DNA from: a virus
Strand: one strand, 5' to 3'
Length of the DNA stretch: 64,000 nt
Virus record (IMG/VR): IMGVR_UViG_3300025174_000005
Shown here: positions 3,634 through 54,984 of the stretch, piece by piece
Layout of the letters: every line of letters begins with the position of its first letter
Numbering within the stretch: the stretch's first letter is position 1
The notes under the pieces: model-generated
Seen by the model: the letters and a program-made list of their open reading frames with translations, nothing else
Told to the model about the DNA's origin: nothing
Database searches by the model: none
Program-made: the position numbers and the translations under genes

Positions 3634-4954
3634 GCGTAAGGAGAAGACCATAGAAGAACAATCTCTCCTTGAGTTTTCTGCTGACACAGGAGAAATAACC
3701 ATAGAACAACAGCGAAAGGCATTTGTACAGAATAATACAAGAGAATTTGTAGATAGTAACTTAACTAAAGAAGAAGCCAGTGAGATGATAGGTGCTAAAT
3801 CTAAGAACCTACAACCTTTTGATATTACTACGCCGCAAGGACATAACGTGGTTGGTTTTATATGTATGCAATTAGACAATAGGTTGGGTTGCTTAGTAAT
3901 AGATAAAGTAAATGGGGAACATACCAAGCAAGTAGTTTTCGGTATGCCTAAGACCCGTTATCCATACGGAGCTAATGGTGTTATAAATATACCTACAGGA
4001 CCCATACAAATTACTGCTAAGCTCGATGGGACAAATATAACTTTTTACCCTTTGAAAAATGCAAAGGGAGACATAATAGAAATAGTACCTAAGGTACGTA
4101 GAAATGCCATGTGTGGACCCTCACCAGTAGACCCCACTATCAACTACCTAGATCTATCTTTGGATATGTTACAGAGACATCCAGCTATCTCTAAGTGTAT
4201 ATTAGAAACAGGATACAGTATCTCAACTGAACTATATGGTTATAAAAATCCGCATATGGTAGCGTATTCTAATCCATTAGATATACGTATACTAATATTC
4301 CTAGACCAAAGTAGGGTAGTAAGTATAAAGGAAGAGCAAGGGCTCTTATCTAAATATGATCTAGCTGGACCTATGATACATTTTCATCAGAATGCACAAG
4401 CACCCAAATATTATCACTCATCCAATGCATTCTTTAATACCTATGGTATAAGATCAACACAAGACTTTAGCAATATAGAACAAACTTATCGTAATATTCA
4501 GCAATTATACGAGGGTATCAATAGAAATGCAGGTAAGTTTATATTAGAAGGTAGTATGTGGGCAGTAGATGTAAATGGTTGTAAGGTTATCCTTAAGTGT
4601 AAGCCTCCAACAGTAGAAGAGAAACACTTCTTAGAAGCAGGTGGCATACATGACCAGATAATAGAGCAAACCATTAGGAAGGCGATGGAAATACCTAGTA
4701 GTGATATGTTAGAAATATGTAAACAACTACTTATTGAAGATGGTTACTCGGTTAGAGCAATACAGCAACACGAACTTAGGATAACTAATGCCATTAAACA
4801 AATCATTCACGTTAATAAACTACGATTATTTGTGGAAGAGGTATGTATGAATATGAATAGTAGAGAACCACGTGTAGTTATGCCTATACTCCATAAGGAA
4901 TGTGGTAAGGATAACAATGGATTATTATTCCAATTATTGACAAAACAAATATGA
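3623..4954 (+). CDS. ATP-dependent RNA ligase-like nucleotidyltransferase
   Basis: KLDGTN (motif I KxDG), ELYG (motif III), EGSM / LKCK (motif IV/V-like); lies downstream of Pnkp. Confidence 0.65.
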   Translation: MPRKRKEKTIEEQSLLEFSADTGEITIEQQRKAFVQNNTREFVDSNLTKEEASEMIGAKSKNLQPFDITTPQGHNVVGFICMQLDNRLGCLVIDKVNGEHTKQVVFGMPKTRYPYGANGVINIPTGPIQITAKLDGTNITFYPLKNAKGDIIEIVPKVRRNAMCGPSPVDPTINYLDLSLDMLQRHPAISKCILETGYSISTELYGYKNPHMVAYSNPLDIRILIFLDQSRVVSIKEEQGLLSKYDLAGPMIHFHQNAQAPKYYHSSNAFFNTYGIRSTQDFSNIEQTYRNIQQLYEGINRNAGKFILEGSMWAVDVNGCKVILKCKPPTVEEKHFLEAGGIHDQIIEQTIRKAMEIPSSDMLEICKQLLIEDGYSVRAIQQHELRITNAIKQIIHVNKLRLFVEEVCMNMNSREPRVVMPILHKECGKDNNGLLFQLLTKQI

Positions 4955-5187
4955 ATATAGAAGAAATAGAAGCCAATCAAATTCTTACATATCCATGTTT
5001 GTTTGACATTGGAATTTCATATATTTCTCAGGCTAATAAAGAAGCAACAAAAGAACTATGGTGTTGTGGCATTAGCCCTTCTAGTATTTTAAATATGCGA
5101 GTGGATTACTATACCCATCTAAAAAATAGATATCATATTAATAAAACCTCATTAAATAGTCTTGCAAGGTTATTGCTAGGTATATGA
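4951..5187 (+). CDS. Small ORF with the conserved C-terminal LLGI tag
   Basis: Ends TSLNSLARLLLGI*. Confidence 0.6.
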   Translation: MNIEEIEANQILTYPCLFDIGISYISQANKEATKELWCCGISPSSILNMRVDYYTHLKNRYHINKTSLNSLARLLLGI

Positions 5188-5426
5188 TTAAACCTGGAGA
5201 TATAATCTTAGGCACAAATGAAAGTAAAACTTGTTGGTTTGTATCACAGTTAAATAAAGATATGGTTGAAAATTGGGCTATAAGCGGTACCCCAACAGGA
5301 TTATGCTCACTAAGTATGTTACGTTCAGTAAGTGACTTGGTCAATAACTATAATTTTACTGTTGTAAAAGCAACACCGTATAATATAGTAAATTCTCTGT
5401 TAAACTTAGGAGAGGAGGTTATATGA
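5184..5426 (+). CDS. Small ORF with the conserved C-terminal tag
   Basis: Ends ATPYNIVNSLLNLGEEVI*. Confidence 0.6.
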   Translation: MIKPGDIILGTNESKTCWFVSQLNKDMVENWAISGTPTGLCSLSMLRSVSDLVNNYNFTVVKATPYNIVNSLLNLGEEVI

Positions 5427-6379
5427 GACTTGAAGATATTGGATTCTATACACTCTCAGATGAGAGAGCTCAAACATCTAGTATTTATACACCATTGTGG
5501 CGCTGCGAGTTAATACTTGGTGCTAGATGTAACTTCAGGTGCCCTTATTGTAGACATATTGGTGGTAGGGATCTAGCACAAAGTAAGGCAGAGGATATTG
5601 TTAGGTTGTGGGCTAACCAAGGACTGAAAAATATTAGGTTTTCAGGAGGAGAACCCACCCTTCAGCCAGGACTCACTAATCTTGTTAAACTATCTAAAGA
5701 ATTAGATATTGAACGCATCGCAATCTCCACTAATGGTTCTGCAGACTATGAATTATATCAGTCTCTTATAGATGAAGGTGCTAATGACCTTTCTATATCA
5801 TTAGATGCGTGTTGTGCAGAAGATGGTGATAAGATGGCAGGTAATAAGAAGGGTTCATGGAATAAAGTAGTTGATAATATTAGACAACTATCTAAACTCA
5901 CATATGTTACTGTAGGAGTTGTGTTGACCGATCAGAATATATCAATTGTTAATGAGACAATTGAATTTGCGCATAACTTAGGAGTGTCTGATATTAGAAT
6001 TATACCAGCTGCACAAAATGGAGATAAGCTTAAGAATATTTATGTCAACAAAGAATTACTAGATGTTCATCCTATCTTAAGATATAGAGTGCAGAATATA
6101 CAAAACGGGCTTACAGTAAGAGGATTATCTTCAAATGATCCCAATAGATGTTCGCTTGTGCTCGATGATATGGCTGTTATGGGAGAAGAACACTATCCAT
6201 GTATTATTTACATGAGAGAGCAAGGCAAACCAATTGGGAAGGTTGGACTAAACATGAGATTGGAAAGAGAGGAGTGGTCGAAGAATCACGACACCCATAA
6301 AGATCCTATATGTAAAAAGAATTGTTTAGATGTATGTATAAACTTTAATAGGAAGAGGTGGAGGACAATATGGAAGTAA
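5423..6379 (+). CDS. Radical SAM protein
   Basis: CNFRCPYC (CxxxCxxC), FSGGEP, ISTNG, C-terminal Cys cluster. Confidence 0.9.
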   Translation: MRLEDIGFYTLSDERAQTSSIYTPLWRCELILGARCNFRCPYCRHIGGRDLAQSKAEDIVRLWANQGLKNIRFSGGEPTLQPGLTNLVKLSKELDIERIAISTNGSADYELYQSLIDEGANDLSISLDACCAEDGDKMAGNKKGSWNKVVDNIRQLSKLTYVTVGVVLTDQNISIVNETIEFAHNLGVSDIRIIPAAQNGDKLKNIYVNKELLDVHPILRYRVQNIQNGLTVRGLSSNDPNRCSLVLDDMAVMGEEHYPCIIYMREQGKPIGKVGLNMRLEREEWSKNHDTHKDPICKKNCLDVCINFNRKRWRTIWK

Positions 6380-7352
6380 AAATTAAGTCAGAAATAGGTA
6401 GTATACGATGGGAATTACCCTCATGGTTTACTAAACAACTTAAAGGTAAAAAAGATGCTAACACTGCTCTTAAAGTAGTTAGTAAAGAGATAATAGGAAG
6501 CGTATGTGGTACTGTCTTGGCCCTGCTTGTTGTTGGCAATATCATTGGAGAAGAGAAAGCCAAGAAATACTTTAGTAAATTACAGAAAGCACTATATGAC
6601 ATCTCAGACAGTTCATGTAAAAACATTACGAAGTATTTAAACAAAAAGAAATGATGATAATAGAAGTGGTGATTTAATCTTAGCTATCTTGCTCCGCTTC
6701 TTTACTGCCAACCCACCAGGACCATTATGGAGATATGCCGCATGGGTAGACATGATGTTGTTTCTTATAACTGTGTTTTTATTCATACGATTCATTTATG
6801 ATGTTTATAAATATACTACTCAAACCGAGTATATATTGGAGAAGTTTTTTGAGAATCTGGAAGATGTGCTACGATAAACTCACGTCAGTGAGTGAAAAGG
6901 ACCAGCAGAAGTTCGTCTCTTCTTTAGAAGGGATAGGCGATATACTTGTTTTTGAAGTAGAACGAGGTAATAGGAACAAGCTTGTTGTAGATGCTCTCAA
7001 GAGACTTAAGAGCAAGATAGCTCGATTGTTCTTGCTCAAGCAAACTAATCCCAACAAGTTCGAACAGCTTTTATTTAGTAAGGAATTTTTTAAGTTGTAT
7101 CGCGAAAACAAACAAAAAGCTCAATTGAGATTAGAGTGGGCGCCAGATAAATATTTGATATCATTTTCTACTGGAATTAACCAATTAGTTAGAATTCATA
7201 GAACAGCATTGGCCAATAAGAATGATGAGATAAGTAGAAATGCAACGTACCAACTGACTTCCTTACTAGCCGATCTTGTTAAACTTCCAGGGCTAGGTTT
7301 GTTTGTAGAAGAGTTGCAGAACCATCTTAGAGATGTTAAGGAGAGTATATAA

Positions 7353-8423: not shown

Positions 8424-9221
8424 ATGATATTCTTAAATAATGTGCCTATTGTTCCAACTATATTTCCTGACGGAACATCTCAAGTATGGAAGCTTGATCC
8501 GAATTTATTAGAACCATCACCATCTAATAAGATTAGATGGGACTTTTCTCATGAAGGAGAGTTTATACAACTAGCTCAACTTGTTATGTTACTTAAACAT
8601 TATGGATGTAATTCAACACTAGAAATTAAATACCTGCCCTATGGCAGACAAGACAAAGAGATATCCAACAAAACTACATTTGCTCTACATGTTTTTGCTA
8701 AGTTACTTAACACATTAGATCTAAAAGAAGTTATAATACATGACCCGCACAGTGAAGCTGCATTACAACTTATTAACAACTCACAGGCTATATATCCCTA
8801 TGCGGAACTTGATGTTATTATTGCTGAAATAGGAACCAATATGATTTGTTTTCCAGATGCAGGAGCACGCAGTAAATATGCTAAGGAATATATAGTGGAT
8901 TGTCCATTTATATATGGAGAGAAAAAGAGAAATCAATTAACAGGCAATATATTTAATTATATTTTAATAGGTGATCCATCTAATAAAAATGTATTAATTG
9001 TGGATGACATATGTGATGGGGGTATGACATTTAAGTTGTTAGCTAAAGAATTATTAGAGAAGGGAGCCAATGAAGTTAACTTATTTGTTACTCATGGTAT
9101 ATTTTCGAAAGGTTTAAAAACCCTCTACGAATCGGGTATTAACTACATCTTTACTCAAAATGGGGAGGTGAGTGAATTGAAGGGAGAAATAACATACAGG
9201 AGGTTGGCTTATCATGCATAG
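8424..9221 (+). CDS. Ribose-phosphate pyrophosphokinase homolog (PRS / Adps-like)
   Basis: FPDG, YLPYGRQDK, DPHS, FPDAGA, LIVDDICDGGMTF (PRPP loop), VTHGIFS. Confidence 0.9.
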   Translation: MIFLNNVPIVPTIFPDGTSQVWKLDPNLLEPSPSNKIRWDFSHEGEFIQLAQLVMLLKHYGCNSTLEIKYLPYGRQDKEISNKTTFALHVFAKLLNTLDLKEVIIHDPHSEAALQLINNSQAIYPYAELDVIIAEIGTNMICFPDAGARSKYAKEYIVDCPFIYGEKKRNQLTGNIFNYILIGDPSNKNVLIVDDICDGGMTFKLLAKELLEKGANEVNLFVTHGIFSKGLKTLYESGINYIFTQNGEVSELKGEITYRRLAYHA

Positions 9222-10683
9222 CCTATCGGCTATGTTACTATGTGATTTCTATAAGCTATCACACAGAGCAATGTACCCTGTAGGTACGGAGATGGTATAC
9301 TCTACGTGGACTCCGCGAGTTAGTAGAATACAAGGTATTGATAGTGTGGTTGTCTTTGGACTACAGGCTTTTATTAAGAAGTATCTAATTACCTTTTTTA
9401 AAGAACATTTTTTTGATAGGCCCAAAGAAGAAGTTGTAAAAGAATATGTTCGTATAGTTAGATCTACTCTAGGAGTTACTAACCCAGAAACACAGCACAT
9501 AGAGGACCTACATGATCTGGGTTATTTACCACTGTCAATTAAGGCTCTACCTGAGGGTACGTTAGTACCCATTCATGTACCTATGCTTACAATACAAAAC
9601 ACACATCCTAAATTCTTTTGGTTAACAAATTATATAGAAACATTGGCTTCATGTGAGCTATGGCAGGCGTCTACTTCAGCCACCATAGCACATGAATACA
9701 GACGCATACTTGATAAAGCAGCAATGGATACCGTAGGTAACATAGACTTCGTTCAATTTCAAGGACATGATTTCTCTATGCGTGGCATGTCATCATTAGA
9801 TTCAGCTATATCTAGTGGTATGGGGCACCTGCTATCATTTGTAGGGACAGATACAATACCAGCTATACAGGGCGCAGAAATATACTATAGTGCTAACGTA
9901 GAGACAGAATTAGTAGGCACTTCTATACCAGCTACAGAACATAGTATACAATGTGCATATGGCAATGATGAAGAATATCTACGCAATATAATAAATCGAG
10001 TACACCCATCAGGATTTGTATCTATAGTATCAGACGGATATGATTTTTGGGATGTAGTGGGTAGAGTAGTTCCTATACTTAAGGATGATATCCTGACACG
10101 AAATGGAAGGGTGGTGATACGTCCCGACAGTGGCGATCCAGTATTGATAGTGTGCGGCGATCCTAATGGAGAAACGGAACTAATCAAGAAAGGTGCTATA
10201 GAGGCTTTATGGGATATATTTGGTGGGACTATTACAGAGAAGGGATATAAATTACTTGATTCTCATATAGGATTAATATATGGTGATGCTATCACTATGC
10301 ATCGTGCTGAAGAAATAGTTACTCGTCTAGCAGCTAAAGGGTTTGCTTCTATTAATGCTGTCTTTGGTATCGGGTCGTATACCTATCAATATAATACTCG
10401 TGATACTTTTGGTTTTGCTTTGAAGTCAACTCTATGTGTTATTGATGGTGAAGAAAAACAAATCTTTAAAGATCCTAAGACAGATAGTGGTATGAAGAAA
10501 TCTCAAAGAGGTAGAGTAGCAGTAGTATCTATTGGTGAAGACAATCAGCTTATATACATTGATAAACTACCAGAAAATCACATATTCAACGATCAACTAA
10601 TAGAAGTTCACCGCGATGGTAAATTACTAGTCGAGCATACTTTTGCTGATATCAGAGCAAGGCTTAATAGCTATGCAATATAA
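9214..10683 (+). CDS. Nicotinamide phosphoribosyltransferase homolog (NAMPT / Namat-like)
   Basis: DFYKLSH, HDFSMRG, GTDTIPA, IPATEHS, VSDGYD, IRPDSGDP, YGDAIT, GIGSYTY, KDPKTD; overlaps the PRS stop. Confidence 0.92.
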   Translation: MHSLSAMLLCDFYKLSHRAMYPVGTEMVYSTWTPRVSRIQGIDSVVVFGLQAFIKKYLITFFKEHFFDRPKEEVVKEYVRIVRSTLGVTNPETQHIEDLHDLGYLPLSIKALPEGTLVPIHVPMLTIQNTHPKFFWLTNYIETLASCELWQASTSATIAHEYRRILDKAAMDTVGNIDFVQFQGHDFSMRGMSSLDSAISSGMGHLLSFVGTDTIPAIQGAEIYYSANVETELVGTSIPATEHSIQCAYGNDEEYLRNIINRVHPSGFVSIVSDGYDFWDVVGRVVPILKDDILTRNGRVVIRPDSGDPVLIVCGDPNGETELIKKGAIEALWDIFGGTITEKGYKLLDSHIGLIYGDAITMHRAEEIVTRLAAKGFASINAVFGIGSYTYQYNTRDTFGFALKSTLCVIDGEEKQIFKDPKTDSGMKKSQRGRVAVVSIGEDNQLIYIDKLPENHIFNDQLIEVHRDGKLLVEHTFADIRARLNSYAI

Positions 10684-11832: not shown

Positions 11833-12093
11833 TTGAATTGGTATACTATGAATCATAAAAAAACTGTTTACTGCTGGAGTAATAGTGAACTTGAAGTGTC
11901 CGTATTGTTCATGCAAGATTTTAATCGTTTTAAAAAAATTAAAATAAATAATATAAGTATTATTAACACAGAAAACCATATTCCAACAAATTCTATTTGT
12001 ACGCCTTACCATGTGGTATTTGCATTACTTGGACTATATAAGCAAGCCGAAGACGCATATCGAAGTAATGGTCCATACTTTAATAATGTTTAG
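11833..12093 (+). CDS. Small ORF with the conserved tag
   Basis: CTPYHVVFALLGLY near the C-terminus. Confidence 0.55.
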   Translation: MNWYTMNHKKTVYCWSNSELEVSVLFMQDFNRFKKIKINNISIINTENHIPTNSICTPYHVVFALLGLYKQAEDAYRSNGPYFNNV

Positions 12094-12624: not shown

Positions 12625-13092
12625 ATGATAATAAAAGAAATAATTACAGAAGAAGTAGCAAGTCAGGTTCAAGGTGCTGTTGATTCTCCGCGCAAATTAG
12701 AACTGCGTGTATTTGATACCATACCTCTTAAGGTGGCATTAGCTGGGGTTATAGCCAAGTTCACCACAGGTGAACGCAATAAGAGCTTTAAGAGCAAAAA
12801 GACAGATGTTATAATTAATATACTAAATCAAAAAGTAAGTATACCCAAAACAGGTAAGAATGGTAATACCTACGAGATAGATTATATGATAAGTATTAGT
12901 GAACCATTTAATGAGCGCATGCGTCCTCAAGTACAGATACGTAAGCTTGGATTCTTTAGTCAACTTAAACAAGCATATACAACTCCCAGTGAAGTAATAG
13001 AGCGTGGTATGATAACGGATACAAGAGAGTATATTCAGATAGTAGATCCTATTGATCAGTTAACTAAAGCTGAAGAACGTAATCATAAGTAA
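12625..13092 (+). CDS. Hypothetical protein downstream of structured element 1
   Basis: 155 aa ORF with RBS aaggag. Confidence 0.7.
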   Translation: MIIKEIITEEVASQVQGAVDSPRKLELRVFDTIPLKVALAGVIAKFTTGERNKSFKSKKTDVIINILNQKVSIPKTGKNGNTYEIDYMISISEPFNERMRPQVQIRKLGFFSQLKQAYTTPSEVIERGMITDTREYIQIVDPIDQLTKAEERNHK

Positions 13093-13148: not shown

Positions 13149-13417
13149 GCCTCCTCTTTATAAAGATCGAGTAGCTAGTTCAAGTACACTAGTACGTCAA
13201 TTATTAGGGGTGTAACATATTATGAAGTATATGATCTTTCATAATTTAGTAGAAACTATAGTTCCCAACAAAGAGATATGTGGGTATTGTAAGGAACTCG
13301 CTCTCTTTAAATTAAAGTCGGATAACATATACACGTGTAGTTCTACGTGTCTAGTTAAGATATTAGAGAATAGAATATGCAATTCTGGCATAGATCCTGT
13401 ATTCTATAGTTGGATGT

Positions 13418-13648
13418 ATGAAAATGACTAATCAAAACATTGAAATATTTGATGATAGAAAACGTACATTACGTGCAAAACATGCGGCAACTTTGATATT
13501 AAAATTACAAGCCAATATATCTTCTGATATATTGGTTTTTTCTACGTATATTGATTCATCAAAACAACGAGTCAGAAAAATGCGTCCAAGAGATAATTAT
13601 GAAAAGTCTACACCGTCTGTTATTGCACGAATACTACTGGGGATATAA
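13418..13648 (+). CDS. Small ORF with the conserved tag
   Basis: Ends STPSVIARILLGI*. Confidence 0.65.
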   Translation: MKMTNQNIEIFDDRKRTLRAKHAATLILKLQANISSDILVFSTYIDSSKQRVRKMRPRDNYEKSTPSVIARILLGI

Positions 13649-14255: not shown

Positions 14256-14453
14256 ATGGAGAAGTGGATATTTGGTTATGCTAATGTTCACATTGATAAA
14301 ACTGGAAATGATACGGGTGAAGTTTTATTCCTCGTTGGTATATTTAGAAATGCTATCATATCACGATCACAAAAATATGATCAAAGTAAGATATGTTCTA
14401 GTGAAGATATTGCAACACCTCATATGGTATGTAAATTATTACTAGGAATATGA
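14256..14453 (+). CDS. Small ORF with the conserved tag
   Basis: Ends ATPHMVCKLLLGI*. Confidence 0.65.
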   Translation: MEKWIFGYANVHIDKTGNDTGEVLFLVGIFRNAIISRSQKYDQSKICSSEDIATPHMVCKLLLGI

Positions 14454-15622: not shown

Positions 15623-15883
15623 ATGCTGTGGCTATCTTCTATGGAAAGAATAAATAAGATCCTTAACTTACCCGATCCTACTACTAAGCCTTTTAATTCT
15701 GAAGGCATAATGGTTATATATGAGGGCTCAATGTCTAGCGTCGGTTGGTGTAGAAACTATAAATCATATTATGTTTATCCTAATATTATAACATCTGCAT
15801 CAGGTACTGCGCTTATCAATTTATTATATGAAGATGATATCGCTTGTTTAAGTTCGTTTTGTAAAACACTATTAAATATTTAG
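15623..15883 (+). CDS. Small ORF with the conserved tag
   Basis: Ends CLSSFCKTLLNI*. Confidence 0.55.
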   Translation: MLWLSSMERINKILNLPDPTTKPFNSEGIMVIYEGSMSSVGWCRNYKSYYVYPNIITSASGTALINLLYEDDIACLSSFCKTLLNI

Positions 15884-16481
15884 CTATTCCCCTCCACGAT
15901 AGGACCGTGGATAAAGCGCCATAGATGGCTCTATTTACGACGAAGAAGAGGAGAACCATATTTTACATGCAGAAGAATAAACTAAGTCTTAGACGTAAAC
16001 CTAAAAATATAATTCAAAAAGGTAGGTATAGATTAAGCACATCTATAATAGCTACATGGTTACAAGATAGGCAGATATTTATACCTGTTAAGATGAAACA
16101 TAGGAGGGATACTCAATTGGTATTGGTTCCTCCTGCGGGACCATGCCTTACTATCTATAAAGCCTATGACTAAGAGAGTATAGAGAGAGGAATTGAAGCA
16201 TTTGGCATCGCTATATATACTGGTTAAACAATTACTAAACATATACTAAATTTAATATAAGAAGGAGAAGTTTATGCCAGCTAGATTACAATTAGGTTAT
16301 AGTGTTATGACTAATAAATGGATCGTTCGAGTAGAAGATGGTGATACAAATAAGATATTTCAAGTTATATTTGATACCCACGAAGAAGCACAAGAGGTAG
16401 TAGATAATATTGTGGAGAGATACAAAGAAGAAACAGGACATAAACCAGAACATATGCCGAATGCACATATGAATTAAAGCA

Positions 16482-16703
16482 ATGAATAATATGAACCCTG
16501 TAGCCGTATATCATTCAATGAAGTGTACAATAAACTACCTACATATATGTTATGAGAATAATTTTTGTAGATTTATCACGATAAATCCTCATGGAATTCA
16601 GGAGGATACACCAATAAAACATGCAGACCCTCTTAATAGGGACGAGGAGTGTTTTTGTACTCTATCACACATGGTTATTATGTTACTTAACTTAAGGAGG
16701 TAG
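16482..16703 (+). CDS. Small ORF with the conserved tag
   Basis: Ends TLSHMVIMLLNLRR*. Confidence 0.5.
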   Translation: MNNMNPVAVYHSMKCTINYLHICYENNFCRFITINPHGIQEDTPIKHADPLNRDEECFCTLSHMVIMLLNLRR

Positions 16704-17478
16704 CTGACATGGGATTACTCACTGGTTTACGCCATGATATTAAATTGAACAATAGGCATGAGGGTTCATATGATGCATCAGATAGACTACAAATAAGAGC
16801 CCTTAGAAGGGCTGTATGTAGATTATTTGGTATTCAATTAGCCGTGGCTTTCCATGAAGCGGCCATTAACGCACTACACACTCCATCTCATATGTTTGAT
16901 TTAGTTGTGGATAAGGCCGATGGCGTAAGGATAATATCTCAGGGTCTACCAATCGATAGCCTATGTTCTATTGATGGAGAACTTCCAGAAAATGGTAGGG
17001 GGTTTCTCATTATATGTTCGTGTTCTAACTGTGATATTAATACGTACGAAGATAAAATAGAATTACATCTGAGACCACTATGAGTATTTCTATATATATT
17101 AGTTTCAGCATTACTAGGAATACCCATAAGAAGGAGATAGTATGCCTCAATTTTTAGTACACATAAGCCACCGTAGAGGTGGCTACGATGATTTTATAAT
17201 AGATGCATTAAGCTTAATTGATGCTAGGGCTCAAGCACAAACTCTCTTTGCTAGTGAGATAATAACCGTGCAAGAATTTAGTACGTCTATGTTCCCTAAG
17301 ATATTTGGTAGCAATAGACCTCACTTCCATAGTAGAATTAATTCATTGGTAGGTGCTGATGGACCTACAAGAGGTACTAATTATCCTGCAGCCCCAAAAG
17401 CATATCCAGACATTGGCAGGAGCTAAGAGAGAAATGTGTCTATGTTATTACTAGGTATTTCATAAGAAGAAGAAACAC

Positions 17479-17739
17479 ATGTCTAATCAATTACTTCCGT
17501 ATGAAATATATTTAACTATCAATATTATGGGTATATCATACTTACTAAGAAGTAAAGTTTACGAGATATATGATAGTAGATTTGATAATAATCAGTTCTT
17601 AAAAGCAAATTCAATTACTTATATTACACCATCTGTTATAAAGAAAGTCCATCAACCAGGGATATATTCTGATTTCAATAATGTTTCACCTACACCTGCA
17701 ACGCCTAGTAATCTAGCAAGAATATTATTAAATATATAA
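17479..17739 (+). CDS. Small ORF with the conserved tag
   Basis: Ends ATPSNLARILLNI*. Confidence 0.65.
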   Translation: MSNQLLPYEIYLTINIMGISYLLRSKVYEIYDSRFDNNQFLKANSITYITPSVIKKVHQPGIYSDFNNVSPTPATPSNLARILLNI

Positions 17740-17872: not shown

Positions 17873-18859
17873 GTGATGTTCATGTATGTAAGAGCACAGA
17901 AGTGTAGCGTCACAAACAAGAGTGGAAATGAACGTATTGCTCAGTTTGATTTCATAGTAGATGAAAGCAATAGTATATCTTATAGGGGGTGGATATATAA
18001 GATTAAGGATACTACCCAAACAATTGGTTATAGATTTTGGGCTAGTTGGGCATTAGGTAATACGCAAGAAACCAATCAACACATAACATCTACCCTTGCA
18101 AAGCAAGGGGTAGATGGTGATATTCTAAGTAAGATACAGCAAGCTCTGCGCACTTATCAGCCAGGTATTCCTCAGATAAATATCCTAGATGGTTATAATC
18201 TAGGAAGAAATATATCGCCCGTATTATTCTATGGAGTACCTAGACTGGTTGTTAAAGGATTGTATGGAGAAGAGTGGCCTGCTTACAGACGTAATAATAA
18301 CGTAAGTCAATATCGTAATTGTAGTAATTGCTCCTTCGCATGTAGAGATAAAGAAAACAGCTTTAGAAATCAACCCTACGAGAGAAGTGTTCAGGACATA
18401 AAAGATCAACCACATCTTCCTTTATGGCGGTGTGCTGTAACTGGTGCGTTTGTAGATAAAGAGATAACTAATAATATTAATGCAACATGGAACTCCGATC
18501 AAAGCCATGGATATTCCAGAGTACAGAAAGATAGGGGATATGTTAGAACACAAGGCGAGCCACAAACAATGTCACGTCCGAGAGGGGAAGACGAAAGTAG
18601 GTATTTAAGTATTGTCAAATTAAGGCAAATGTCTTTAGAGGAAAATACATGTCCAGCTCATATGTTTAAAGCAAGAGAGCAATATCAAGATGAAGCAAGT
18701 AGATTAAAAGATATTAATCCTAAGACCATACGTTGGTTTAAAGATAATACACATGTATGTGAGATTATGGGACATAAAATAAGGTTAATAGAACTAGATG
18801 TATTAGGAGAAGAGCTCGGTAAGGCTGATCTGGCTTATATGAGAAAACAATATGTGTAG
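17873..18859 (+). CDS. Hypothetical protein with Cys cluster
   Basis: 328 aa; CSNCSFAC...C...C-x2-H. Confidence 0.7.
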   Translation: MMFMYVRAQKCSVTNKSGNERIAQFDFIVDESNSISYRGWIYKIKDTTQTIGYRFWASWALGNTQETNQHITSTLAKQGVDGDILSKIQQALRTYQPGIPQINILDGYNLGRNISPVLFYGVPRLVVKGLYGEEWPAYRRNNNVSQYRNCSNCSFACRDKENSFRNQPYERSVQDIKDQPHLPLWRCAVTGAFVDKEITNNINATWNSDQSHGYSRVQKDRGYVRTQGEPQTMSRPRGEDESRYLSIVKLRQMSLEENTCPAHMFKAREQYQDEASRLKDINPKTIRWFKDNTHVCEIMGHKIRLIELDVLGEELGKADLAYMRKQYV

Positions 18860-18921
18860 ATATAGTAAGAGCATTACTGGGTATTGATATTAGAATATAA
18901 TAAAGAAAGAGGTATTGGTAG

Positions 18922-21358: not shown

Positions 21359-21546
21359 TGGAATGATGAGGCAACCACTGAGAGAATATGTAGATTACTA
21401 CTTAATATTATAGGAGATAGATATGAATAAAAAAGATGACTTAATGTATGATAGTGGTGACTATGTGTGTGATAATTGTGGAGAAATATCAGTTAACTCT
21501 CCTATGACTTTATGTGAAGAGTGCTTGAAAGTGTGTATAGACGATA

Positions 21547-21738
21547 ATGATTTATGATATAATTACATATAGCAATAATGCCGTTCTTAATTGTTACTGT
21601 GGTAGTAATGCTTCAGTGCTTTATATAATTGCTAGTAGTTATATGTGTTGTTTTAATCGTGCTATACCACCAACAATGACTAGTGGTATAGCTACGCCAG
21701 ATTTTGTTATTGGGATGTTATTGGGTATAGCCAAATAA
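21547..21738 (+). CDS. Small ORF with the conserved tag
   Basis: Ends ATPDFVIGMLLGIAK*. Confidence 0.6.
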   Translation: MIYDIITYSNNAVLNCYCGSNASVLYIIASSYMCCFNRAIPPTMTSGIATPDFVIGMLLGIAK

Positions 21739-21743: not shown

Positions 21744-21767
21744 AAAAGCGTATCCCAAAGGATACGC
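21744..21767 (-). terminator. Intrinsic terminator for the minus-strand gene
   Basis: GCGTATCC-CAAA-GGATACGC, with an A-tract on the + strand that is a U-tract on the minus strand. Confidence 0.65.
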
Positions 21768-21848
21768 ACAGATCGTATAACCACCAGAACTTTGGGTTGT
21801 ATTCGTCCATATCTTATCTAGTGATTGTCTTTTAAGACAAAGTTTTAA

Positions 21849-22079
21849 TTAGTAGTGGTAACTTGTAGTTACGTTGATATCAGCTAACGTACCTTGTTCT
21901 ATCTTAAGAAGGTCCATCTTAAGACCACGTAGGATAATGCTTAAATCAGCAAGTCCTGAGAGGTCGTCGGAAACGGGATTGTCTGAGGTTAAAACAATAC
22001 CGTTCTTATGGTCTATAAAAGACTCAGTGTTCCTAAGTCCACGTTTAATATAGCGAACTTTGAAAGCAGCCATGTACAT
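21849..22079 (-). CDS. Lone minus-strand small protein
   Basis: RBS aaggaga just upstream, its own promoter and terminator. Confidence 0.75.
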   Translation of the reverse strand: MYMAAFKVRYIKRGLRNTESFIDHKNGIVLTSDNPVSDDLSGLADLSIILRGLKMDLLKIEQGTLADINVTTSYHY

Positions 22080-22114
22080 ATCTCCTTTCTTATTTGAGGT
22101 AGCTTACAAAGACA

Positions 22115-22286: not shown

Positions 22287-22511
22287 TTGGAATGGTATGC
22301 GCCAACTCAAATGAAAACACCATTAGCTTCAACCAATGTAGTAGCAATAGATATTATGGATGACTATCTAGATTTACGGGTAAGAATTACCGTCCGTGAG
22401 ATGAATAAGATTAGGGCTATGTATCCTAAATGCAGAGGTCTTAATACAACAACACCAGCAATAGTATGTCAAGCACTCTTTGGTATAGAAGTACCATGTT
22501 TATATGATTAA
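22287..22511 (+). CDS. Small ORF with the conserved tag
   Basis: TTPAIVCQALFGIEV. Confidence 0.55.
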   Translation: MEWYAPTQMKTPLASTNVVAIDIMDDYLDLRVRITVREMNKIRAMYPKCRGLNTTTPAIVCQALFGIEVPCLYD

Positions 22512-22710
22512 ACAATGCTGTAATTCTCTATATCAATCTATATCAATATACCATGGTATTAATCATTGGGGTGTGCACGTAGCAAAGACCAAACTTGACA
22601 CTTCATATTGTTATGAGTTGGTATCTTGTTCGCCAAATGCTGAGATTTCAACGCCTAGTCTTGTAGTCAAATTTTTACTTGGTATTTACAATAAAGAATT
22701 TTTTGAATAA
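22504..22710 (+). CDS. Small ORF with the conserved tag
   Basis: STPSLVVKFLLGIY. Confidence 0.6.
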   Translation: MIKQCCNSLYQSISIYHGINHWGVHVAKTKLDTSYCYELVSCSPNAEISTPSLVVKFLLGIYNKEFFE

Positions 22711-22721: not shown

Positions 22722-22943
22722 ATGGCTAAATCAATAACCAAGAGATTAGAAATATTTTATGCTGGTGTGGAAGATTGGTACTTGGGTATTAATGGCAAGT
22801 ATCCTTTGGAGCGTTTGGTACATCCATACAAAGAAGGTAACTGTATCGAAGAAGAAGTAGAGATGCAATGCCTGGGTAGGATATTAGTTATGCTGTTAGA
22901 TATCTTTCCAGAGCTAAACCAGAAGGAGAAAACTATTGAATAA
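22722..22943 (+). CDS. Small ORF with a degenerate tag
   Basis: CLGRILVMLLDIF. Confidence 0.5.
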   Translation: MAKSITKRLEIFYAGVEDWYLGINGKYPLERLVHPYKEGNCIEEEVEMQCLGRILVMLLDIFPELNQKEKTIE

Positions 22944-25602: not shown

Positions 25603-25614
25603 GGAGGCTAAACC

Positions 25615-31220: not shown

Positions 31221-31436
31221 ATGATTACTCAACAACTAGAAACTTATTATGAAATACTTACTACAAAAGAAAAAGTAGAAGTCGGTGCTGGTGTATTCTG
31301 TACTCGTGCATATGGAGAGCTGATAAGTATATGTTCAACTAGTATTGAAAGAAACAGACCAGACAACTGGATGGTATATAAAAATAATACAATATCCACA
31401 CCAAGTAGTATATGTAAAATATTACTTAATTTATAA
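31221..31436 (+). CDS. Small ORF with the conserved tag
   Basis: Ends STPSSICKILLNL*. Confidence 0.65.
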   Translation: MITQQLETYYEILTTKEKVEVGAGVFCTRAYGELISICSTSIERNRPDNWMVYKNNTISTPSSICKILLNL

Positions 31437-31484
31437 TATATAGAGGTCCATCATACACAATTCGAATACTTTTAGGAGTAAGTC

Positions 31485-31718
31485 TTGACTAATATAGAAA
31501 TAAAATATAAACACTTTAAAACTCTCGTTCGTTCATGGACACCACATATTGATGCTAAGACCTATACCAGTTTCTTATTAACTGACTACAATCTACAGAT
31601 CACTCACCAATATCACATCTTTAAAGACAAAATAACCACAAATAAATCTAGGAGTAAATTTATAGATGCAGATAAAGCTACTCCTTCAATAATGGCAAGA
31701 GCACTTTTGGGGATATAA
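31485..31718 (+). CDS. Small ORF with the conserved tag
   Basis: Ends ATPSIMARALLGI*. Confidence 0.65.
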   Translation: MTNIEIKYKHFKTLVRSWTPHIDAKTYTSFLLTDYNLQITHQYHIFKDKITTNKSRSKFIDADKATPSIMARALLGI

Positions 31719-37293: not shown

Positions 37294-37797
37294 ATGAAGA
37301 AATTTTGGTTAGTTATCTTATTTATGGTTATGCTTAATTTATATACATACGCAACTTCTAATCTAGAGATTGTTTCTCAAGATAACGATGCTACATTTGC
37401 AATTAATAGAGCCTACAACACATTAATATCACAGGGGTATACCGATACCCTTATCTACTTAAGAAAAGTTATTTATAGCGCAAACATCAAGCGCTCAGAG
37501 GTAAGGGGAGATAAGGCAATATTCTATTTAAAAGAACACCCTATTAAAGATATGTCTAGTTCGTGGTTAGCTTCAGTATTACTCCATGAAGCATGGCATC
37601 TTCGCCTTAGGGATAAGGGGAAGCCATGGTATGGTTTAGCTGGTGAGAAAGTATGTCTCACACATCAGCTAGAGTATCTTAAGAAGTATGGAGCCAAACA
37701 CGATATTAGGTGGGCAGAATATGTTCTTAGGAATATAGAAGATCCAGCCTATCAATGGTGGAGAGATGGTATTGTTATACCACCTATAATTAAATGA
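37294..37797 (+). CDS. Putative secreted HExxH metallopeptidase
   Basis: Signal-like N-terminus MKKFWLVILF; LLHEAWH...E. Confidence 0.55.
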   Translation: MKKFWLVILFMVMLNLYTYATSNLEIVSQDNDATFAINRAYNTLISQGYTDTLIYLRKVIYSANIKRSEVRGDKAIFYLKEHPIKDMSSSWLASVLLHEAWHLRLRDKGKPWYGLAGEKVCLTHQLEYLKKYGAKHDIRWAEYVLRNIEDPAYQWWRDGIVIPPIIK

Positions 37798-38063
37798 ATA
37801 ATATGGATGGTGTTTCAGAGGTAATATATGAGTGGGGAAATACTTATTGTAGCTATCTAGTGTTAAACTATGAAAATACACTATGTAGTAAAATTAAACC
37901 AGACATGGTATATCATAGTCATTACAGTAAGATCGTAATTAAAAAAACAAAAATAATGAGCACAGATCAATGTGGTTGTGGAAGTTTGCATATTGTATCA
38001 TTGCCAGATACTGCCAAACATATAGGACCATCGGATATGGCAAGAATACTTTTAGGGATATAG
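37794..38063 (+). CDS. Small ORF with the conserved tag
   Basis: Ends IGPSDMARILLGI*. Confidence 0.65.
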   Translation: MNNMDGVSEVIYEWGNTYCSYLVLNYENTLCSKIKPDMVYHSHYSKIVIKKTKIMSTDQCGCGSLHIVSLPDTAKHIGPSDMARILLGI

Positions 38064-38064: not shown

Positions 38065-38319
38065 ATGCATAAAGCTACAAGAGTAACCATTACTACCCCA
38101 ATTATAATACCGCATAGCTTGAGAATAAATGCGGCAACAGTTATACAACATAATCTAAAAAATGAACTTCGTGATATATATATCTATCCAGATCATATCA
38201 AAAATCACACAGCAACAGAAAAAGATATAATAGGAGCAGATAATATGTTTCAGTTTTGTATACCAGAAGACATATGTAGAGCATTACTTGATATATATAA
38301 TACTGAATCACATGGATAA
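38065..38319 (+). CDS. Small ORF with the conserved tag
   Basis: CIPEDICRALLDIY. Confidence 0.6.
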   Translation: MHKATRVTITTPIIIPHSLRINAATVIQHNLKNELRDIYIYPDHIKNHTATEKDIIGADNMFQFCIPEDICRALLDIYNTESHG

Positions 38320-38516: not shown

Positions 38517-38771
38517 ATGAATTTATTTTTGAGGAGTATATGTAATCCTATGAAAATAACTATTATGCAAATACAAAATACAATCTATAGATTTATAGAA
38601 AAACAATTACTCAAAGAAAATACAGTTATAGCCGCCTATGAAGTCACACCACACCGCATAATAGCCTCAGAATGGAGCACAGACAATGCATGCGGTATGC
38701 TCTCTCCTACACCATATAAATCAACATCAACACCTGCGTCTGTTAGTAGAATCTTACTAGGATTACCATGA
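38517..38771 (+). CDS. Small ORF with the conserved tag
   Basis: Ends STPASVSRILLGLP*. Confidence 0.65.
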   Translation: MNLFLRSICNPMKITIMQIQNTIYRFIEKQLLKENTVIAAYEVTPHRIIASEWSTDNACGMLSPTPYKSTSTPASVSRILLGLP

Positions 38772-39725: not shown

Positions 39726-40277
39726 ATGGAACCAACACCCGCTCCGCCACCGAATATTGGCGCAAGAAACTTACGTGACTATAATATTATACGCTTGTTT
39801 AAATCACCAGAAGATTGCGTAGATCAGATAGTAGAGGACTTATTACTTATAGATCTAAATAGTAATAGTGATCCAATTCAAATACTCGTTAATTGTCCAG
39901 GTGGTAGTACATCAGCAGCATTTACTATTATAGATGTAATTAATTATATACGTCCTCGTAATCAAATTATAACAGTTGGTGTAGGAGATGTGTGTTCTGC
40001 AGGATTAGACATATTCTTAGCAGGAGATGTGCGTAAGATAACCAAAAGAGCATCCATACTATCTCATCACTTTATATGGGGTAACCACGGATCTCAGCCA
40101 GCTTTGTTAGCAAGGAGAAGGGAAGAAGATTTATTAGTAGAAAGATGTATAGATTGGTACATAGAACGCACAGGACTATCGAGAGAAGACGTGCTTAAAT
40201 ATTTATTAAGAGATCATGATGCATGGCTTAGTGCTGACGAAGCACTTCTATATAATATAGCCACAGAAATAATTTAA
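39726..40277 (+). CDS. clpP: ClpP-like protease
   Basis: VNCPGGS, VCSAG (Ser), ILSHH (His), HDAWLSADEAL (Asp). Confidence 0.88.
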   Translation: MEPTPAPPPNIGARNLRDYNIIRLFKSPEDCVDQIVEDLLLIDLNSNSDPIQILVNCPGGSTSAAFTIIDVINYIRPRNQIITVGVGDVCSAGLDIFLAGDVRKITKRASILSHHFIWGNHGSQPALLARRREEDLLVERCIDWYIERTGLSREDVLKYLLRDHDAWLSADEALLYNIATEII

Positions 40278-42849: not shown

Positions 42850-43104
42850 TTGTTCCCAGTATTATCCCCCATAGAATGTGTGGTATCACATTGTGCCTTC
42901 AAAAGTATTGGAGGTACCACTATAGCCACCTACGGGTACATAGATAATATCCTACATTTGTGTGCTGTAAATATTTACCCATCTCGATTATGGGGAACTG
43001 TCACTACCAATTTCAAATTATGTAATTTTTTCGAATATAGCTGTAGACCTGTTGATGTATGTAGGGCATTACTAGGAATACCTGGAGATGCTAATGAATC
43101 CTGA
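42850..43104 (+). CDS. Small ORF with the conserved tag
   Basis: CRPVDVCRALLGIP. Confidence 0.6.
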   Translation: MFPVLSPIECVVSHCAFKSIGGTTIATYGYIDNILHLCAVNIYPSRLWGTVTTNFKLCNFFEYSCRPVDVCRALLGIPGDANES

Positions 43105-49513: not shown

Positions 49514-50470
49514 ATGAATAAGTCCACTCATAAGGTTGAAGTAGTGTCTATTACATTGGAGCCACATCCAAACGCTGATAGTCTATCTATAGTACGTATT
49601 TTTGGCTATACAATTGTAGTTAAGACTGAGCAATGGGAAGGAATCAATATTGGAGCGTATATAGTGCCTGACAGTGTTGTTGATATTACACGTCCCGAGT
49701 TTTCTTTCTTAACTAATCCTCGTATTAAAGTTAAGAAACTGCGTGGTGTGGTATCTATGGGTCTTCTTATGCCTGCTCCTCTTGGAGCTCAGGTAGGTGA
49801 TGATGTAGCAGAATATTATGGAGTGACTAGGTACGAACCACCACTTGAAAACTTAAGCACAGGCGGAGAAATTGGACCCACACCAGACGGCATATATTAC
49901 AAATACGATATAGATACATACTATCGTTATCCTACTATCTTCCAAAAAGAAGATGAAGTATGGATAACAGAGAAACTACATGGATCTTCGGCAAGGTATG
50001 TGTTCCAAGATAATGATATGTATATTGGATCGCGCAATGAATGGAAAAAGGGCGATGGTAATATTTGGGCAGGAGCCCTTAAGCAAAATACATGGATAGA
50101 AGAATGGTGTAGAGCACATGAAGGGTATGCCTTATATGGTGAAGTATTTGGCTATGTGCAGGATTTAAAATACGGTCACGGTAAAGGACAGTATAGTTTT
50201 AGAGTATTTGATGTGCTCCATAGAGGTAGGTGGTTAGATTTCGATGAACTATTTCGGATTGGATTGGATTTCAATAAACTAGTACCAACACTATATGTTG
50301 GGCATTATCACCCCACATTAATACAATATGCAGATGGAGATAGTTGTATACCTAAAGCCAATCACATACGAGAAGGTATTGTAATTAAACCTGTCGTCAA
50401 TCGACAGGATGATGCTATAGGTAGAGTTATATTAAAAGTAGTTAGTAATAAATATCTAGAGAGGGCTTAA
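49514..50470 (+). CDS. RNA ligase, DRB0094/Rnl5-like with N-terminal OB domain
   Basis: HPNADSL, KLRGVVSMGL, ITEKLHGSS, GEVFG, FDV, REGIVIKP, ILKVVSNKYL. Confidence 0.88.
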   Translation: MNKSTHKVEVVSITLEPHPNADSLSIVRIFGYTIVVKTEQWEGINIGAYIVPDSVVDITRPEFSFLTNPRIKVKKLRGVVSMGLLMPAPLGAQVGDDVAEYYGVTRYEPPLENLSTGGEIGPTPDGIYYKYDIDTYYRYPTIFQKEDEVWITEKLHGSSARYVFQDNDMYIGSRNEWKKGDGNIWAGALKQNTWIEEWCRAHEGYALYGEVFGYVQDLKYGHGKGQYSFRVFDVLHRGRWLDFDELFRIGLDFNKLVPTLYVGHYHPTLIQYADGDSCIPKANHIREGIVIKPVVNRQDDAIGRVILKVVSNKYLERA

Positions 50471-52864: not shown

Positions 52865-53743
52865 ATGACGATAAATTTAATCAACCCTAAGGAATACAAT
52901 TATGTTGTAACTAAACTACGGCAATTCTTTCAGGCTAAAGGTTTTATAGAAACACCAGTACAACACAGACTAAGCATCCTAGCAGCATGTGAAGATCCAT
53001 CTACGATAGCTACATTTAACTACGCAGGAGAACTATGGCCTCTTCCACAAACAGGTCAGATGTGGCTAGAATATGAGTTACTCAAGAACCCAAGTGAAAC
53101 GGGATTCTATTGCATAAGTACAAGCTATCGCAATGAAGCTAATCCCATACCAGGTAGACATGATTTGGTTTTCCCCATGTTTGAATTCGAAACACATGGT
53201 GATATAAATAATCTGGTAAATCTGGAATTAGAGTTATTGGAACATTTAGGTTTCGGAGATCAACAAGAGTATTGCTCGGCCATATATGACTACTCGCAAC
53301 TTGCAGAAACATTTAAGACTAAAATATTAACAGCAGAACATGAGGAATTGTTATATAAAGAACGTCATATACCAATTGCTTTCTTAACATTGTTTCCACA
53401 GTATACTTCACCATTTTGGAATATGTGTGTAGTAGATAAAATTAGAAGAGATAAAGCAGCTAAGGTTGATGTTATTTTATATGGTATGGAAACGATAGGT
53501 TCTGCCGAGAGATCTTCTGATCCAGAAGAAATGAATTATCTTTTTCATACGATAAGCGACGGTATGTATGCTAAGATATTGTATTCTCAATTTGGTAAGG
53601 AGCGGGTAGAAAAAGAATTAAAAGAATTTTTGTCATCATCTTTCTTTACTAGATGTGGTGGTGGTATAGGACTAACCAGACTAATAAGAGCCATGAGGAT
53701 GGCTGGATTATTAGAAGAAACTTCGTGCATCATTAAGAGTTGA
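52865..53743 (+). CDS. AsnRS/AspRS-like catalytic core without anticodon domain (AsnA/EpmA-like paralog)
   Basis: GFIETP, LPQTGQMWLE, STSYRNE, RHDLVFPMFEFE, ETIGSAER, GGGIGLTRL. Confidence 0.85.
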   Translation: MTINLINPKEYNYVVTKLRQFFQAKGFIETPVQHRLSILAACEDPSTIATFNYAGELWPLPQTGQMWLEYELLKNPSETGFYCISTSYRNEANPIPGRHDLVFPMFEFETHGDINNLVNLELELLEHLGFGDQQEYCSAIYDYSQLAETFKTKILTAEHEELLYKERHIPIAFLTLFPQYTSPFWNMCVVDKIRRDKAAKVDVILYGMETIGSAERSSDPEEMNYLFHTISDGMYAKILYSQFGKERVEKELKEFLSSSFFTRCGGGIGLTRLIRAMRMAGLLEETSCIIKS

Positions 53744-53905: not shown

Positions 53906-53969
53906 AGGAGACAATAATGAGTAAGACAAGACCTAGACAAGAACCAATTGCAGAGCTTAAAGAATTATT
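53906..53969 (+). repeat. 64-bp exact direct repeat, copy 1 (RBS plus first codons of 53917-54366)
   Basis: aggagacaataatgagtaagac...gaattatt repeated at 54609-54672. Confidence 0.92.
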
Positions 53970-54608
53970 GCAATCAAAAGAATACAAAGCCAGTAAGAAC
54001 TGGCACGCAGAAAAAGAAAATTATATCAATAATGTTAACGAGTTATTGGCTAAAATTAAACAATGGCTCAAGGAAGAAGTAAGTAAGGGATTAATAATTA
54101 TAGAAAACAAGACAATATTAGTAAATGAGTTAGGTGAGTATGCAATACAATGCCTATGTTTAAGAACAAGCAATACCTTTATTACTATTCGACCTATAGG
54201 TTGCGTGGTATCAGGTGTAGATGGAGCAATCAACATAGAAATTCCTTGGATGACCAGAACAGTTTGTTGCATGAACAATCGGTGGAATTACATGACCGAA
54301 GGAGGATTTGTTAATTTAACAAAAAATACCTTTAAAGAAATGCTTCAAGAATCCTTAACAGACTAACAATATAACGGGGGAAATTAGATGGAAATAGAAC
54401 AAGCATGGACTGTATATTACCCATTTAGAGAACGCTTAATAGAAGTTAAGTATAACAATGAAAAACAATTTAATAAAGATATGGATGACTGGCTTAGTAA
54501 CATGGTCACAGACACACGTAAGCTATCTATAGATGAATTAAATAATAAGGATAAGTTAAAGATAGAATGGTTTAATGAAAGGGATATCAATTATATCAAG
54601 AGAATATA

Positions 54609-54691
54609 AGGAGACAATAATGAGTAAGACAAGACCTAGACAAGAACCAATTGCAGAGCTTAAAGAATTATTAACAGACTTATGCATTTGA
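54609..54691 (+). pseudogene. Internally deleted duplicate of gene 53917-54366 (23-aa mini-ORF 54620-54691)
   Basis: The 64-bp repeat is joined to ttaacagact, which matches the end of the parent gene. Confidence 0.7.
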
Positions 54692-54984
54692 ATAAAGCAA
54701 CCAAAAAAATAACCAAGATATTACCAGCTCACTATCCCTATCTTTTACATAAGATACAACTAGATACCTCAAGCACCACTAGGTTAGTAGATGAGATACT
54801 CTTTGGCTTACATCTAGATGGTAAGGACCTCATACTTAACACAGGACATACTATAAGTAATTCTACTATTACCATATTAAATCTTAAGGCAGTAATAGCT
54901 TCAGGTAAATTTGATTTAAAACAAGAGGCTGCGATACCCCTAGATATAGTAAGGGCATTACTAGGTATGGAAGGAGGTGAGTAA
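54682..54984 (+). CDS. Small ORF with the conserved tag
   Basis: AIPLDIVRALLGME. Confidence 0.6.
   Translation: MHLNKATKKITKILPAHYPYLLHKIQLDTSSTTRLVDEILFGLHLDGKDLILNTGHTISNSTITILNLKAVIASGKFDLKQEAAIPLDIVRALLGMEGGE

Follow-up and report, generated by a model that had tools for sequence, protein, structure and literature searches.

Among large phages, one of the closest described parallels to the system reported here is the lineage-specific expansion of small accessory proteins in Bacillus phage G, which harbors approximately 35 zinc-ribbon copies (Iyer et al. 2021, PMC7824862). The present analysis concerns a 64,000-nucleotide stretch of DNA (IMG/VR record IMGVR_UViG_3300025174_000005; referred to below, at its full length, as the window) in which 19 small open reading frames (ORFs) share a short C-terminal element, here termed the tail, with the pattern acidic, hydrophobic, small, T, P, x, (D/S), h, (C/V/A), (R/K), h, L, L, (G/N/D), (I/L), where h is hydrophobic and x is any residue. 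As in phage G, dozens of small paralogs of unknown role occur within one lineage, dispersed among early and accessory genes. Whereas the whole small domain is kept in phage G, only a predicted C-terminal capped helix is retained here, in some members together with an upstream strand, and the bodies have diverged. The tail family, unlike that of phage G, also lacks a metal-ligand pattern, and its genes lack Shine-Dalgarno sites.

Another point of comparison is provided by the promoter-early/stem-loop (PeSL) cassettes found in hyperplastic regions of the T4 type (Arbiol et al. 2010, PMC2839356; Comeau et al. 2014, PMC4122927), with which the tail shares the presence of a short repeated motif bordering small ORFans in regions of fast turnover, as well as the gain or loss of whole genes between close relatives. 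A PeSL, however, is a non-coding sigma-70-like promoter plus terminator hairpin which is conserved at the nucleotide level and acts in recombination, whereas the tail is coding, is free at its wobble positions, and possesses neither hairpin nor promoter. As no promoter, stem-loop terminator, or frame-independent nucleotide conservation was found, a PeSL-type cassette was rejected. At the level of the motif itself, the tail is reminiscent of the C-terminal beta-clamp-binding motif QLVLGL of Escherichia coli Pol IV (PMC3716654), in that h-L-L-G-(I/L) is located at or near the C terminus with a Gly amid hydrophobic residues, and the phage uses a DnaE-type polymerase. Unlike the clamp motif, the tail is longer, capped, predicted to be helical, and often non-terminal, and the Gln that defines such motifs (QL[SD]LF or QLxLxL) is absent, the position being occupied by R (14), K (11), S (4), or other residues, with Q in one window copy. 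The model substrate peptide of the Hsp70 chaperone DnaK, NRLLLTG, places a basic residue ahead of a Leu-rich core, as does the tail, but DnaK binds extended peptides of unfolded proteins, whereas the tail is predicted to form a capped helix with conserved flanks. The internal proteins of phage T4 likewise bear one short shared peptide, the capsid-targeting sequence, which serves them as an address although they otherwise differ; in T4 this sequence lies at the N terminus, where the prohead protease cleaves it, whereas the tail is C-terminal and its genes are located in an early, replication-associated region.

The first-pass annotation of the window had listed 19 tail copies in ORFs of 63 to 100 amino acids (aa), 15 of them retaining the Pro and 8 followed directly by a stop codon after the final I/L, and every copy was found where it had been placed, with the same counts. 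In the window, the 19 tails occur on the coding strand only, always in the reading frame of the ORF, and no more than 18 residues from its end. Their enrichment over shuffled sequence, for which a check had been suggested, is pronounced: a position-specific scoring matrix (PSSM) built from the 19 tails returned, at a cutoff of ≥12 bits, 23 matches on the plus strand and 0 on the minus strand, compared with a mean of 0.6 in shuffled sequence counted over six frames. Circularity was avoided through a PSSM built solely from the tails of a related phage (L005; see below), which at a cutoff of ≥10 bits returned 24 plus-strand matches and 1 minus-strand match versus 2.1 in shuffles, retrieving 18 of the 19 listed copies and missing only the tail at position 5149. 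When the intact copies of both phages are combined (n = 38), every tail is found no farther than 18 residues from the end of its ORF, with a median extension of 3 residues; 11 tails have no extension, while 27 carry 1 to 18 further residues. Six further, degenerate copies (at 13177, 16208, 17087, 18850, 21374, and 31445) lack an ORF body and are confined to short stop-to-stop frames, and no copies were found in the flanks of the window, comprising 3 kb upstream and 10 kb downstream.

All of the tail ORFs are located on the plus strand. A stop codon directly after the tail is seen in the ORFs at 4951..5187 (78 aa; tail 5149-5184, no Pro; 18.5 bits), 13418..13648 (76 aa; tail 13610-13645), 14256..14453 (65 aa; tail 14415-14450), the body of which resembles that of ORF 22504, 15623..15883 (86 aa; tail 15845-15880, no Pro), 17479..17739 (86 aa; tail 17701-17736), 31221..31436 (71 aa; tail 31398-31433), 37794..38063 (89 aa; tail 38025-38060), and 31485..31718 (77 aa, TTG start; tail 31680-31715). 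The last of these represents the top-scoring copy (34.8 bits), and its protein is found in identical form on at least 24 metagenome contigs. Among the remaining ORFs, that at 5184..5426 (80 aa; tail 5373-5408) continues for 5 residues which encode the Shine-Dalgarno site of the following radical-SAM gene, and that at 11833..12093 (86 aa; tail 12001-12036) continues for 18 residues. The ORF at 16482..16703 (73 aa; tail 16659-16694, no Pro) has a body homologous to that of its positional ortholog, L005 7308-7523 (z 5.05), and is followed along the window by those at 21547..21738 (63 aa; tail 21694-21729), 22287..22511 (74 aa; tail 22452-22487), and 22504..22710 (68 aa; tail 22651-22686), the last being orthologous to L005 14454-14681 (z 9.65). 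The ORF at 22722..22943 (73 aa) is a marginal member, whose tail-like segment (22869-22904; 15.6 bits) lacks T-P and lies inside a long predicted helix; its ortholog, L005 14697-14912, shares 72% aa identity. The set is completed by the ORFs at 38065..38319 (84 aa; tail 38260-38295), 38517..38771 (84 aa; tail 38730-38765), 42850..43104 (84 aa; tail 43045-43080), which has a TTG start, a good Shine-Dalgarno site, and a body resembling that of ORF 38065, and 54682..54984 (100 aa; tail 54934-54969).

Synonymous codon variation had been taken in the first-pass annotation to indicate selection on the peptide rather than on a DNA site, and a comparison of codon positions bears this out. Across 13 tail codons in the 38 copies from the two phages, the information content amounts to 8.5, 13.2, and 3.0 bits at codon positions 1, 2, and 3, respectively, the wobble position thus accounting for 3.0 of 24.6 bits, and the nucleotide identity of tails between positional orthologs is 0.53, 0.66, and 0.39 at the same positions. 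The Thr, Pro, Leu, Gly, and Ile codons of the tail follow genome usage, and the synonymous sites of neighboring genes are saturated between the phages (proportion of synonymous differences, pS, ~0.7). Because wobble positions are nearly free, codons follow genome usage, and the motif persists despite this saturation, selection acts at the peptide level. The tail ORFs themselves are, to judge from their sequences, most probably real protein-coding genes: the codon usage of their bodies is gene-like (0.255 per codon versus 0.086 for ORFs in random Markov sequence; p = 1.6e-11), and purifying selection is evident in two clear ortholog pairs, namely those of ORF 22722 (proportion of nonsynonymous differences, pN, 0.15 versus pS 0.86) and ORF 22504 (pN 0.36 versus pS 0.78). 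Contigs of each of the two phages from different samples are 99.98 to 100% identical.

The description of the tail as an N-capped amphipathic helix, likewise put forward in the first-pass annotation, is consistent with both the AlphaFold2 model of ORF 38065, in which three strands and a short helix are followed by a helix over the tail (residues 67-74; block predicted local distance difference test score [pLDDT] 73-79), and the fit of the sequence to helix-capping rules, which assign every conserved tail position a role. The small residue and Thr-Pro read as an N-cap, the N3 position being frequently Asp, Glu, or Ser; positions 5, 8, 9, and 12 read as a classic hydrophobic stripe, which position 6 (often C, V, I, or A) and the near-invariant Leu 10 would broaden to ~200 degrees, with the Arg or Lys of position 7 beside this hydrophobic arc; and G/N/D, which accept the left-handed conformation, followed by I/L read as a Schellman-type C-cap. 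The Gly position is occupied by Gly in 26 of the 38 copies and by N, D, Y, or R in the other 12. The polar extensions past the motif are shaped by the ribosome-binding site of the next gene, and the strongly constrained element appears to be only a C-terminal alpha-helix of ~12 to 15 residues. Co-folding of two copies of ORF 38065 (score 0.04, mark 0.42) gave no verdict on self-association. A helix-turn-helix, of which the tail would resemble helix 2 plus the turn, was rejected on the grounds that a stop or short polar extension follows G-(I/L) and that no Pfam helix-turn-helix match was obtained.

While the first-pass annotation had described the ORFs as unrelated, with N termini that could not be aligned, only the latter part stands, at the BLASTP level; as written, the former does not, since a second conserved block is present and homology of the bodies is detectable in approximately half of the members. 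BLASTP links several pairs across 40 to 55 residues, and a 20-member alignment revealed the block h-x-h-x-(P/K)-x-x-I, located 20 to 28 residues upstream of the tail. Hidden Markov models (HMMs) of the bodies alone, trained on one phage and scored on the other, exceeded shuffles (p = 6e-4 and 8e-4), and Gibbs sampling for one ungapped second motif in the 38 bodies yielded a score barely above that of shuffles (347.6 versus ≤339.4). The marginal ORF 22722 is modeled as all-helical and ORF 38065 as three strands plus helices, both models being of low confidence. A modest excess of the residues in which the variable parts had been reported to be rich was also seen (Cys, 2.9 versus 1.7%; His, 3.1 versus 2.3%; Tyr, 5.9 versus 4.4%; Ile, 11.0 versus 8.5%). 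Overall, the tail ORFs would largely, perhaps wholly, constitute one diverged paralogous family, with capture of the tail by unrelated sequence being possible for some members.

A homolog of the window-encoded MoxR protein at 72% identity led to the contigs of the second phage, L005, while a search of isolated phages and IMG/VR returned no close relative of the phage. In the syntenic 17 kb of L005, a PSSM trained on the window only located ~19 tails, each of which lies on the coding strand and at the end of an ORF of 67 to 92 aa. Ordinary genes of the two phages share 40 to 90% protein identity and ~71 to 78% DNA identity. The tail ORFs share slots between these ordinary genes in both phages and are mostly unrecognizable to each other, homologous bodies being detected in 3 of 9 positional pairs (z 5, 9.7, and 43); across the syntenic stretch, the window holds 10 intact copies and 5 body-less ones, versus ~19 intact copies in L005. 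Phages whose MoxR is 34 to 35% identical harbor no tails. When 1.84 billion representative proteins were searched exhaustively with the profile, the training sequences alone were recovered, and a word-based homolog search with the family alignment recovered only the proteins of the window itself. The earlier statement that no such family had been described was upheld by sequence searches of Pfam, PHROGs, and PDB, none of which gave a match. The ESM Atlas likewise provided no usable match (model pLDDT there, 0.41), and Foldseek (PDB and BFVD) and wide VIA-align searches with the two AlphaFold2 models remained at noise level (best Z, 2.9; best E, 0.02). In view of the absence of tails from the more distant MoxR-encoding phages and the empty protein searches, the tail family is restricted to a small clade comprising the window phage and its one known relative. 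With 19 and ~19 copies in these two phages and none found outside the lineage, it has the copy number and distribution of a lineage-specific expansion.

The six body-less copies, all on the plus strand, score 9 to 22 bits, compared with 18 to 35 bits for intact copies, and cannot be aligned between the window phage and L005, both of which fit decay once selection on the peptide had ceased. The copy at 13177..13215 (9.1 bits) has no start codon and lies in frame, 27 codons past the stop of ORF 12625-13092; that at 17087..17140 (10.7 bits) lies in frame immediately past the TGA stop of ORF 16709-17083; and that at 21374..21430 (21.6 bits) lies in frame, 4 codons past the TAA stop of the VWA gene, in a slot which in the relative contains three intact tail ORFs. 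The copy at 16208..16249 (15.0 bits) constitutes at most an 18-codon mini-ORF, and the corresponding slot of the relative holds two intact tail ORFs. At 18850..18900 (21.7 bits), upstream of the MoxR gene, the copy overlaps the end of ORF 17873-18859 in another frame, while the copy at 31445..31492 (10.0 bits) separates tail ORFs 31221 and 31485, its Leu-Gly codons serving as the Shine-Dalgarno core for the TTG start of the latter. At least two of these copies therefore occupy slots in which the relative keeps whole tail genes, and all six are best read as the remains of lost family members. Three of the six are in frame behind an upstream stop, for which the chance probability (≥3 of 6, at 1/3 each) is ~0.32. 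Stop-codon reassignment or read-through was rejected as a general account: TAA, TAG, and TGA all end tail ORFs, more stops follow, and the window contains no tRNA genes.

A Shine-Dalgarno core precedes 13 of the 38 tail ORFs, at the background rate of random ATGs (26%), as opposed to 99 of 137 other genes (p = 3.7e-5), and the start of 15 of the 19 window ORFs overlaps the stop codon of the upstream ORF or follows it by no more than 18 nucleotides (nt). From the missing Shine-Dalgarno sites and the starts at upstream stops, we infer that the tail ORFs are probably translationally coupled and of low output.

On balance, we favor the interpretation that the tail ORFs specify lineage-specific, very fast-evolving small early proteins which share a common docking helix on a diversifying body, although the docking step, taken alone, is proposed with less assurance. 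Members would be created by duplication and would diverge until only the tail helix is recognizable, with the upstream strand-Pro-x-x-Ile block persisting as well in approximately half of them; frequent loss of members would leave 3′ relics, and most members would be produced at a low level via translational coupling. The tail helix is presumed to represent the common working surface, plugging every member into one partner, which may be a host or phage hub protein, and the variable, beta-rich body may confer differing specificities, as for host-takeover or counter-defense proteins in an arms race. The coupling, the docking to a common partner, and the host-directed role are all inferred, and docking is favored because the helix remains fixed while the rest of the protein changes and because its hydrophobic surface extends beyond what a single packing face would require. 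Several points weigh against this interpretation. A body-only HMM of the 20-member alignment did not clearly recognize the remaining 18 members (p = 0.06), and shared ancestry of the bodies does not appear demonstrable from sequence in approximately half of the family. Both AlphaFold2 models are of low confidence (pLDDT 64 and 69), so that exposure of the helix is tentative, and the helix could simply be the structural core of one small fold. The scarcity of Shine-Dalgarno sites could mean that some members are poorly translated or not translated at all. Finally, every Ala codon of the tail (positions 6 and 8) is GCA (11 of 11, versus 35% genome usage), although the other tail codons vary freely, a bias that may point to a nucleotide-level or founder effect.

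The main rival is a purely structural explanation, under which all members derive by copying and divergence from a single small alpha/beta fold, the core helix of which has no shared docking role. This appears distinctly less probable, even though helix capping or hydrophobic packing accounts for all conserved positions, the second block found in half of the members resembles a core strand, the similarity of bodies across the two phages is weak but significant, and the model of ORF 38065 has three strands ahead of the helix. The ~200-degree arc, the two invariant adjacent Leu residues, and the conserved Arg/Lys would exceed one packing face, the helix persists while bodies diverge past recognition, and one tail-bearing protein, that of the marginal ORF 22722, is predicted to be all-helical rather than beta-rich. 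A portable tag, the view taken in the first-pass annotation, which had proposed docking, packaging, degradation, or conjugation as possible roles, would instead imply that the 3′ tail segment was captured by, or extended upstream into, unrelated or newborn ORFs. The lack of detectable similarity in 6 of 9 positional pairs and 18 of 38 bodies, the shift of body composition towards that of AT-rich random sequence, the existence of tails without bodies, and the different predicted secondary-structure classes of the two models would all be expected of such a tag. We nevertheless regard it as improbable, as detectable similarity reaches well past the tail and the tails have too little nucleotide identity to have been captured by recombination; moreover, the body-less copies are degenerate and are located in slots with intact genes in the relative, and thus more likely reflect loss than birth. 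In its strongest form, a true portable address, the capped helix would plug a constantly renewed library of duplicated proteins and proteins newborn from AT-rich sequence into a single hub, a scenario to which we assign a similarly small likelihood; such a hub might be a phage machine or, on the host side, a chaperone, clamp, or protease.

A role as a degron or protease-docking tail, whereby the Leu-Leu-Gly-Ile end would guide proteins to a Clp-type machine, was considered since the window encodes a phage ClpP protease (39726-40277) and an AAA+ protein, the gene for which (30042-31217) is directly upstream of two tail ORFs. The hydrophobic L-G-I/L recalls the IGF/IGL loops with which ClpX and ClpA dock on ClpP, a resemblance that, like those to the Pol IV clamp motif and the DnaK model peptide, is taken as no more than a lead. 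The tail is, however, predicted to be helical rather than an extended loop, 12 of the 38 copies have N, D, Y, or R in place of Gly, and the free C terminus is not conserved, so that this role seems quite unlikely. In particular, an ssrA-like or ClpX C-motif degron was rejected: a free carboxylate at the extreme C terminus is present in only 11 of the 38 copies, and a degron of this type fits poorly because 27 have further, polar residues. Nor is the tail believed to mark a ubiquitin-like modifier of the E1/E2/JAB operon in the window, a candidate that was rejected given that its Gly is not invariant and that the operon has a ThiS-like gene of its own (24768-25004); with regard to a beta-grasp fold, the models were of low confidence and gave no fold match. 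The least probable explanation, and one already largely refuted, is a DNA or RNA element (a promoter, terminator, operator, RNase site, or PeSL-like cassette) that overlaps gene ends by chance. Six copies do lie outside ORFs, the Ala codon is fixed, and the Leu-Gly codons at times supply an AGG(A/G) core for the next start. Against this, the wobble positions are nearly free, the motif inside ORFs never departs from the coding frame or from the 3′ end, and the body-less copies are unalignable across the two phages and more degenerate than the coding ones. Consensus RNA structure was also absent (RNAalifold on 23 copies, 0 pairs), as was an Rfam match to the tail element; sigma-70-like promoter sites are as frequent in the window as in shuffles (92 versus 92.6), with none coinciding with tails, and the next start codon lies at a variable distance from the tail (−2 to >100 nt).

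The window covers the region devoted to early functions, replication, and nucleotide metabolism in an uncultured large phage (~180 kb), with proteins identical to its own being found on metagenome contigs of up to ~178 to 181 kb. It has a G+C content of 34%, and the plus strand carries nearly all genes. Recognizable products include the DnaE-type polymerase, a UvrD helicase, ribonucleotide reductase, RecA, SSB, and NAMPT, in addition to a MoxR-VWA pair, a Ubl-E2-E1-JAB operon, ClpP, and the AAA+ protein; no clamp gene is present in the window. The MoxR AAA+ ATPase is followed by a DUF2201/VWA protein (18922-21358), and because this pair is also present in distant phages of other metagenomes (L011 and L013), it is a conserved phage module. 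The ubiquitin-like conjugation operon (24768-27411), which is 75 to 92% conserved in L005, specifies a ThiS/MoaD-like 78-aa protein with a K-P-G-R end, encoded by the ThiS-like gene mentioned above, as well as a 205-aa protein without a Pfam match, a ThiF/E1 enzyme, and a protein with a weak Prok-JAB match. Among the tail ORFs are located an NAD salvage pair (8424-10683), composed of a phosphoribosyl-pyrophosphate-synthetase-like gene and the NAMPT gene, which exhibit ~60% identity to genes of Bacillus-group phages, and the radical-SAM enzyme gene (5423-6379). An HNH endonuclease gene (34864-35208), identified through a Pfam match on the identical contig L001, is located immediately behind the DnaE polymerase gene, and the phage also encodes a peptide deformylase (36346-36837), an RNA ligase (49514-50470), and a 292-aa class II aminoacyl-tRNA-synthetase-like protein consisting of the catalytic core only (52865-53743). 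A 324-nt stretch (21766-22089) shares 88% DNA identity with L005 13805-14128, compared with 71 to 78% for all other alignable blocks. Within it lies the sole minus-strand gene of the region, a 76-aa ORF (21849-22079) with a strong Shine-Dalgarno site, which is adjoined by a terminator-like hairpin (21748-21767); the RNA fold z value of the stretch is −2.1 for the minus and −0.6 for the plus strand.

Small ORFans without a functional handle make up most of the gene content of large phages, and ~40 of these, in two phages, have here been found to share one structural element, which is held by selection while the remainder of the protein changes faster than synonymous sites can track. The family also displays gene loss with recognizable relics, and the missing ribosome-binding sites suggest a distinct, coupled, and low-level mode of expression for its genes. 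If the helix represents only a fold core, the family would still provide a clean natural case of extreme divergence around a minimal conserved core. If it is a docking surface, a hub acted on by a fifth of the early genes could be found via the helix, and each variable body would become a candidate specificity module for host takeover or counter-defense. A true portable address, finally, would, if different shared tails also occur in other large phages, point to a general and undescribed organizing principle for the fast-evolving accessory proteins of large phages.

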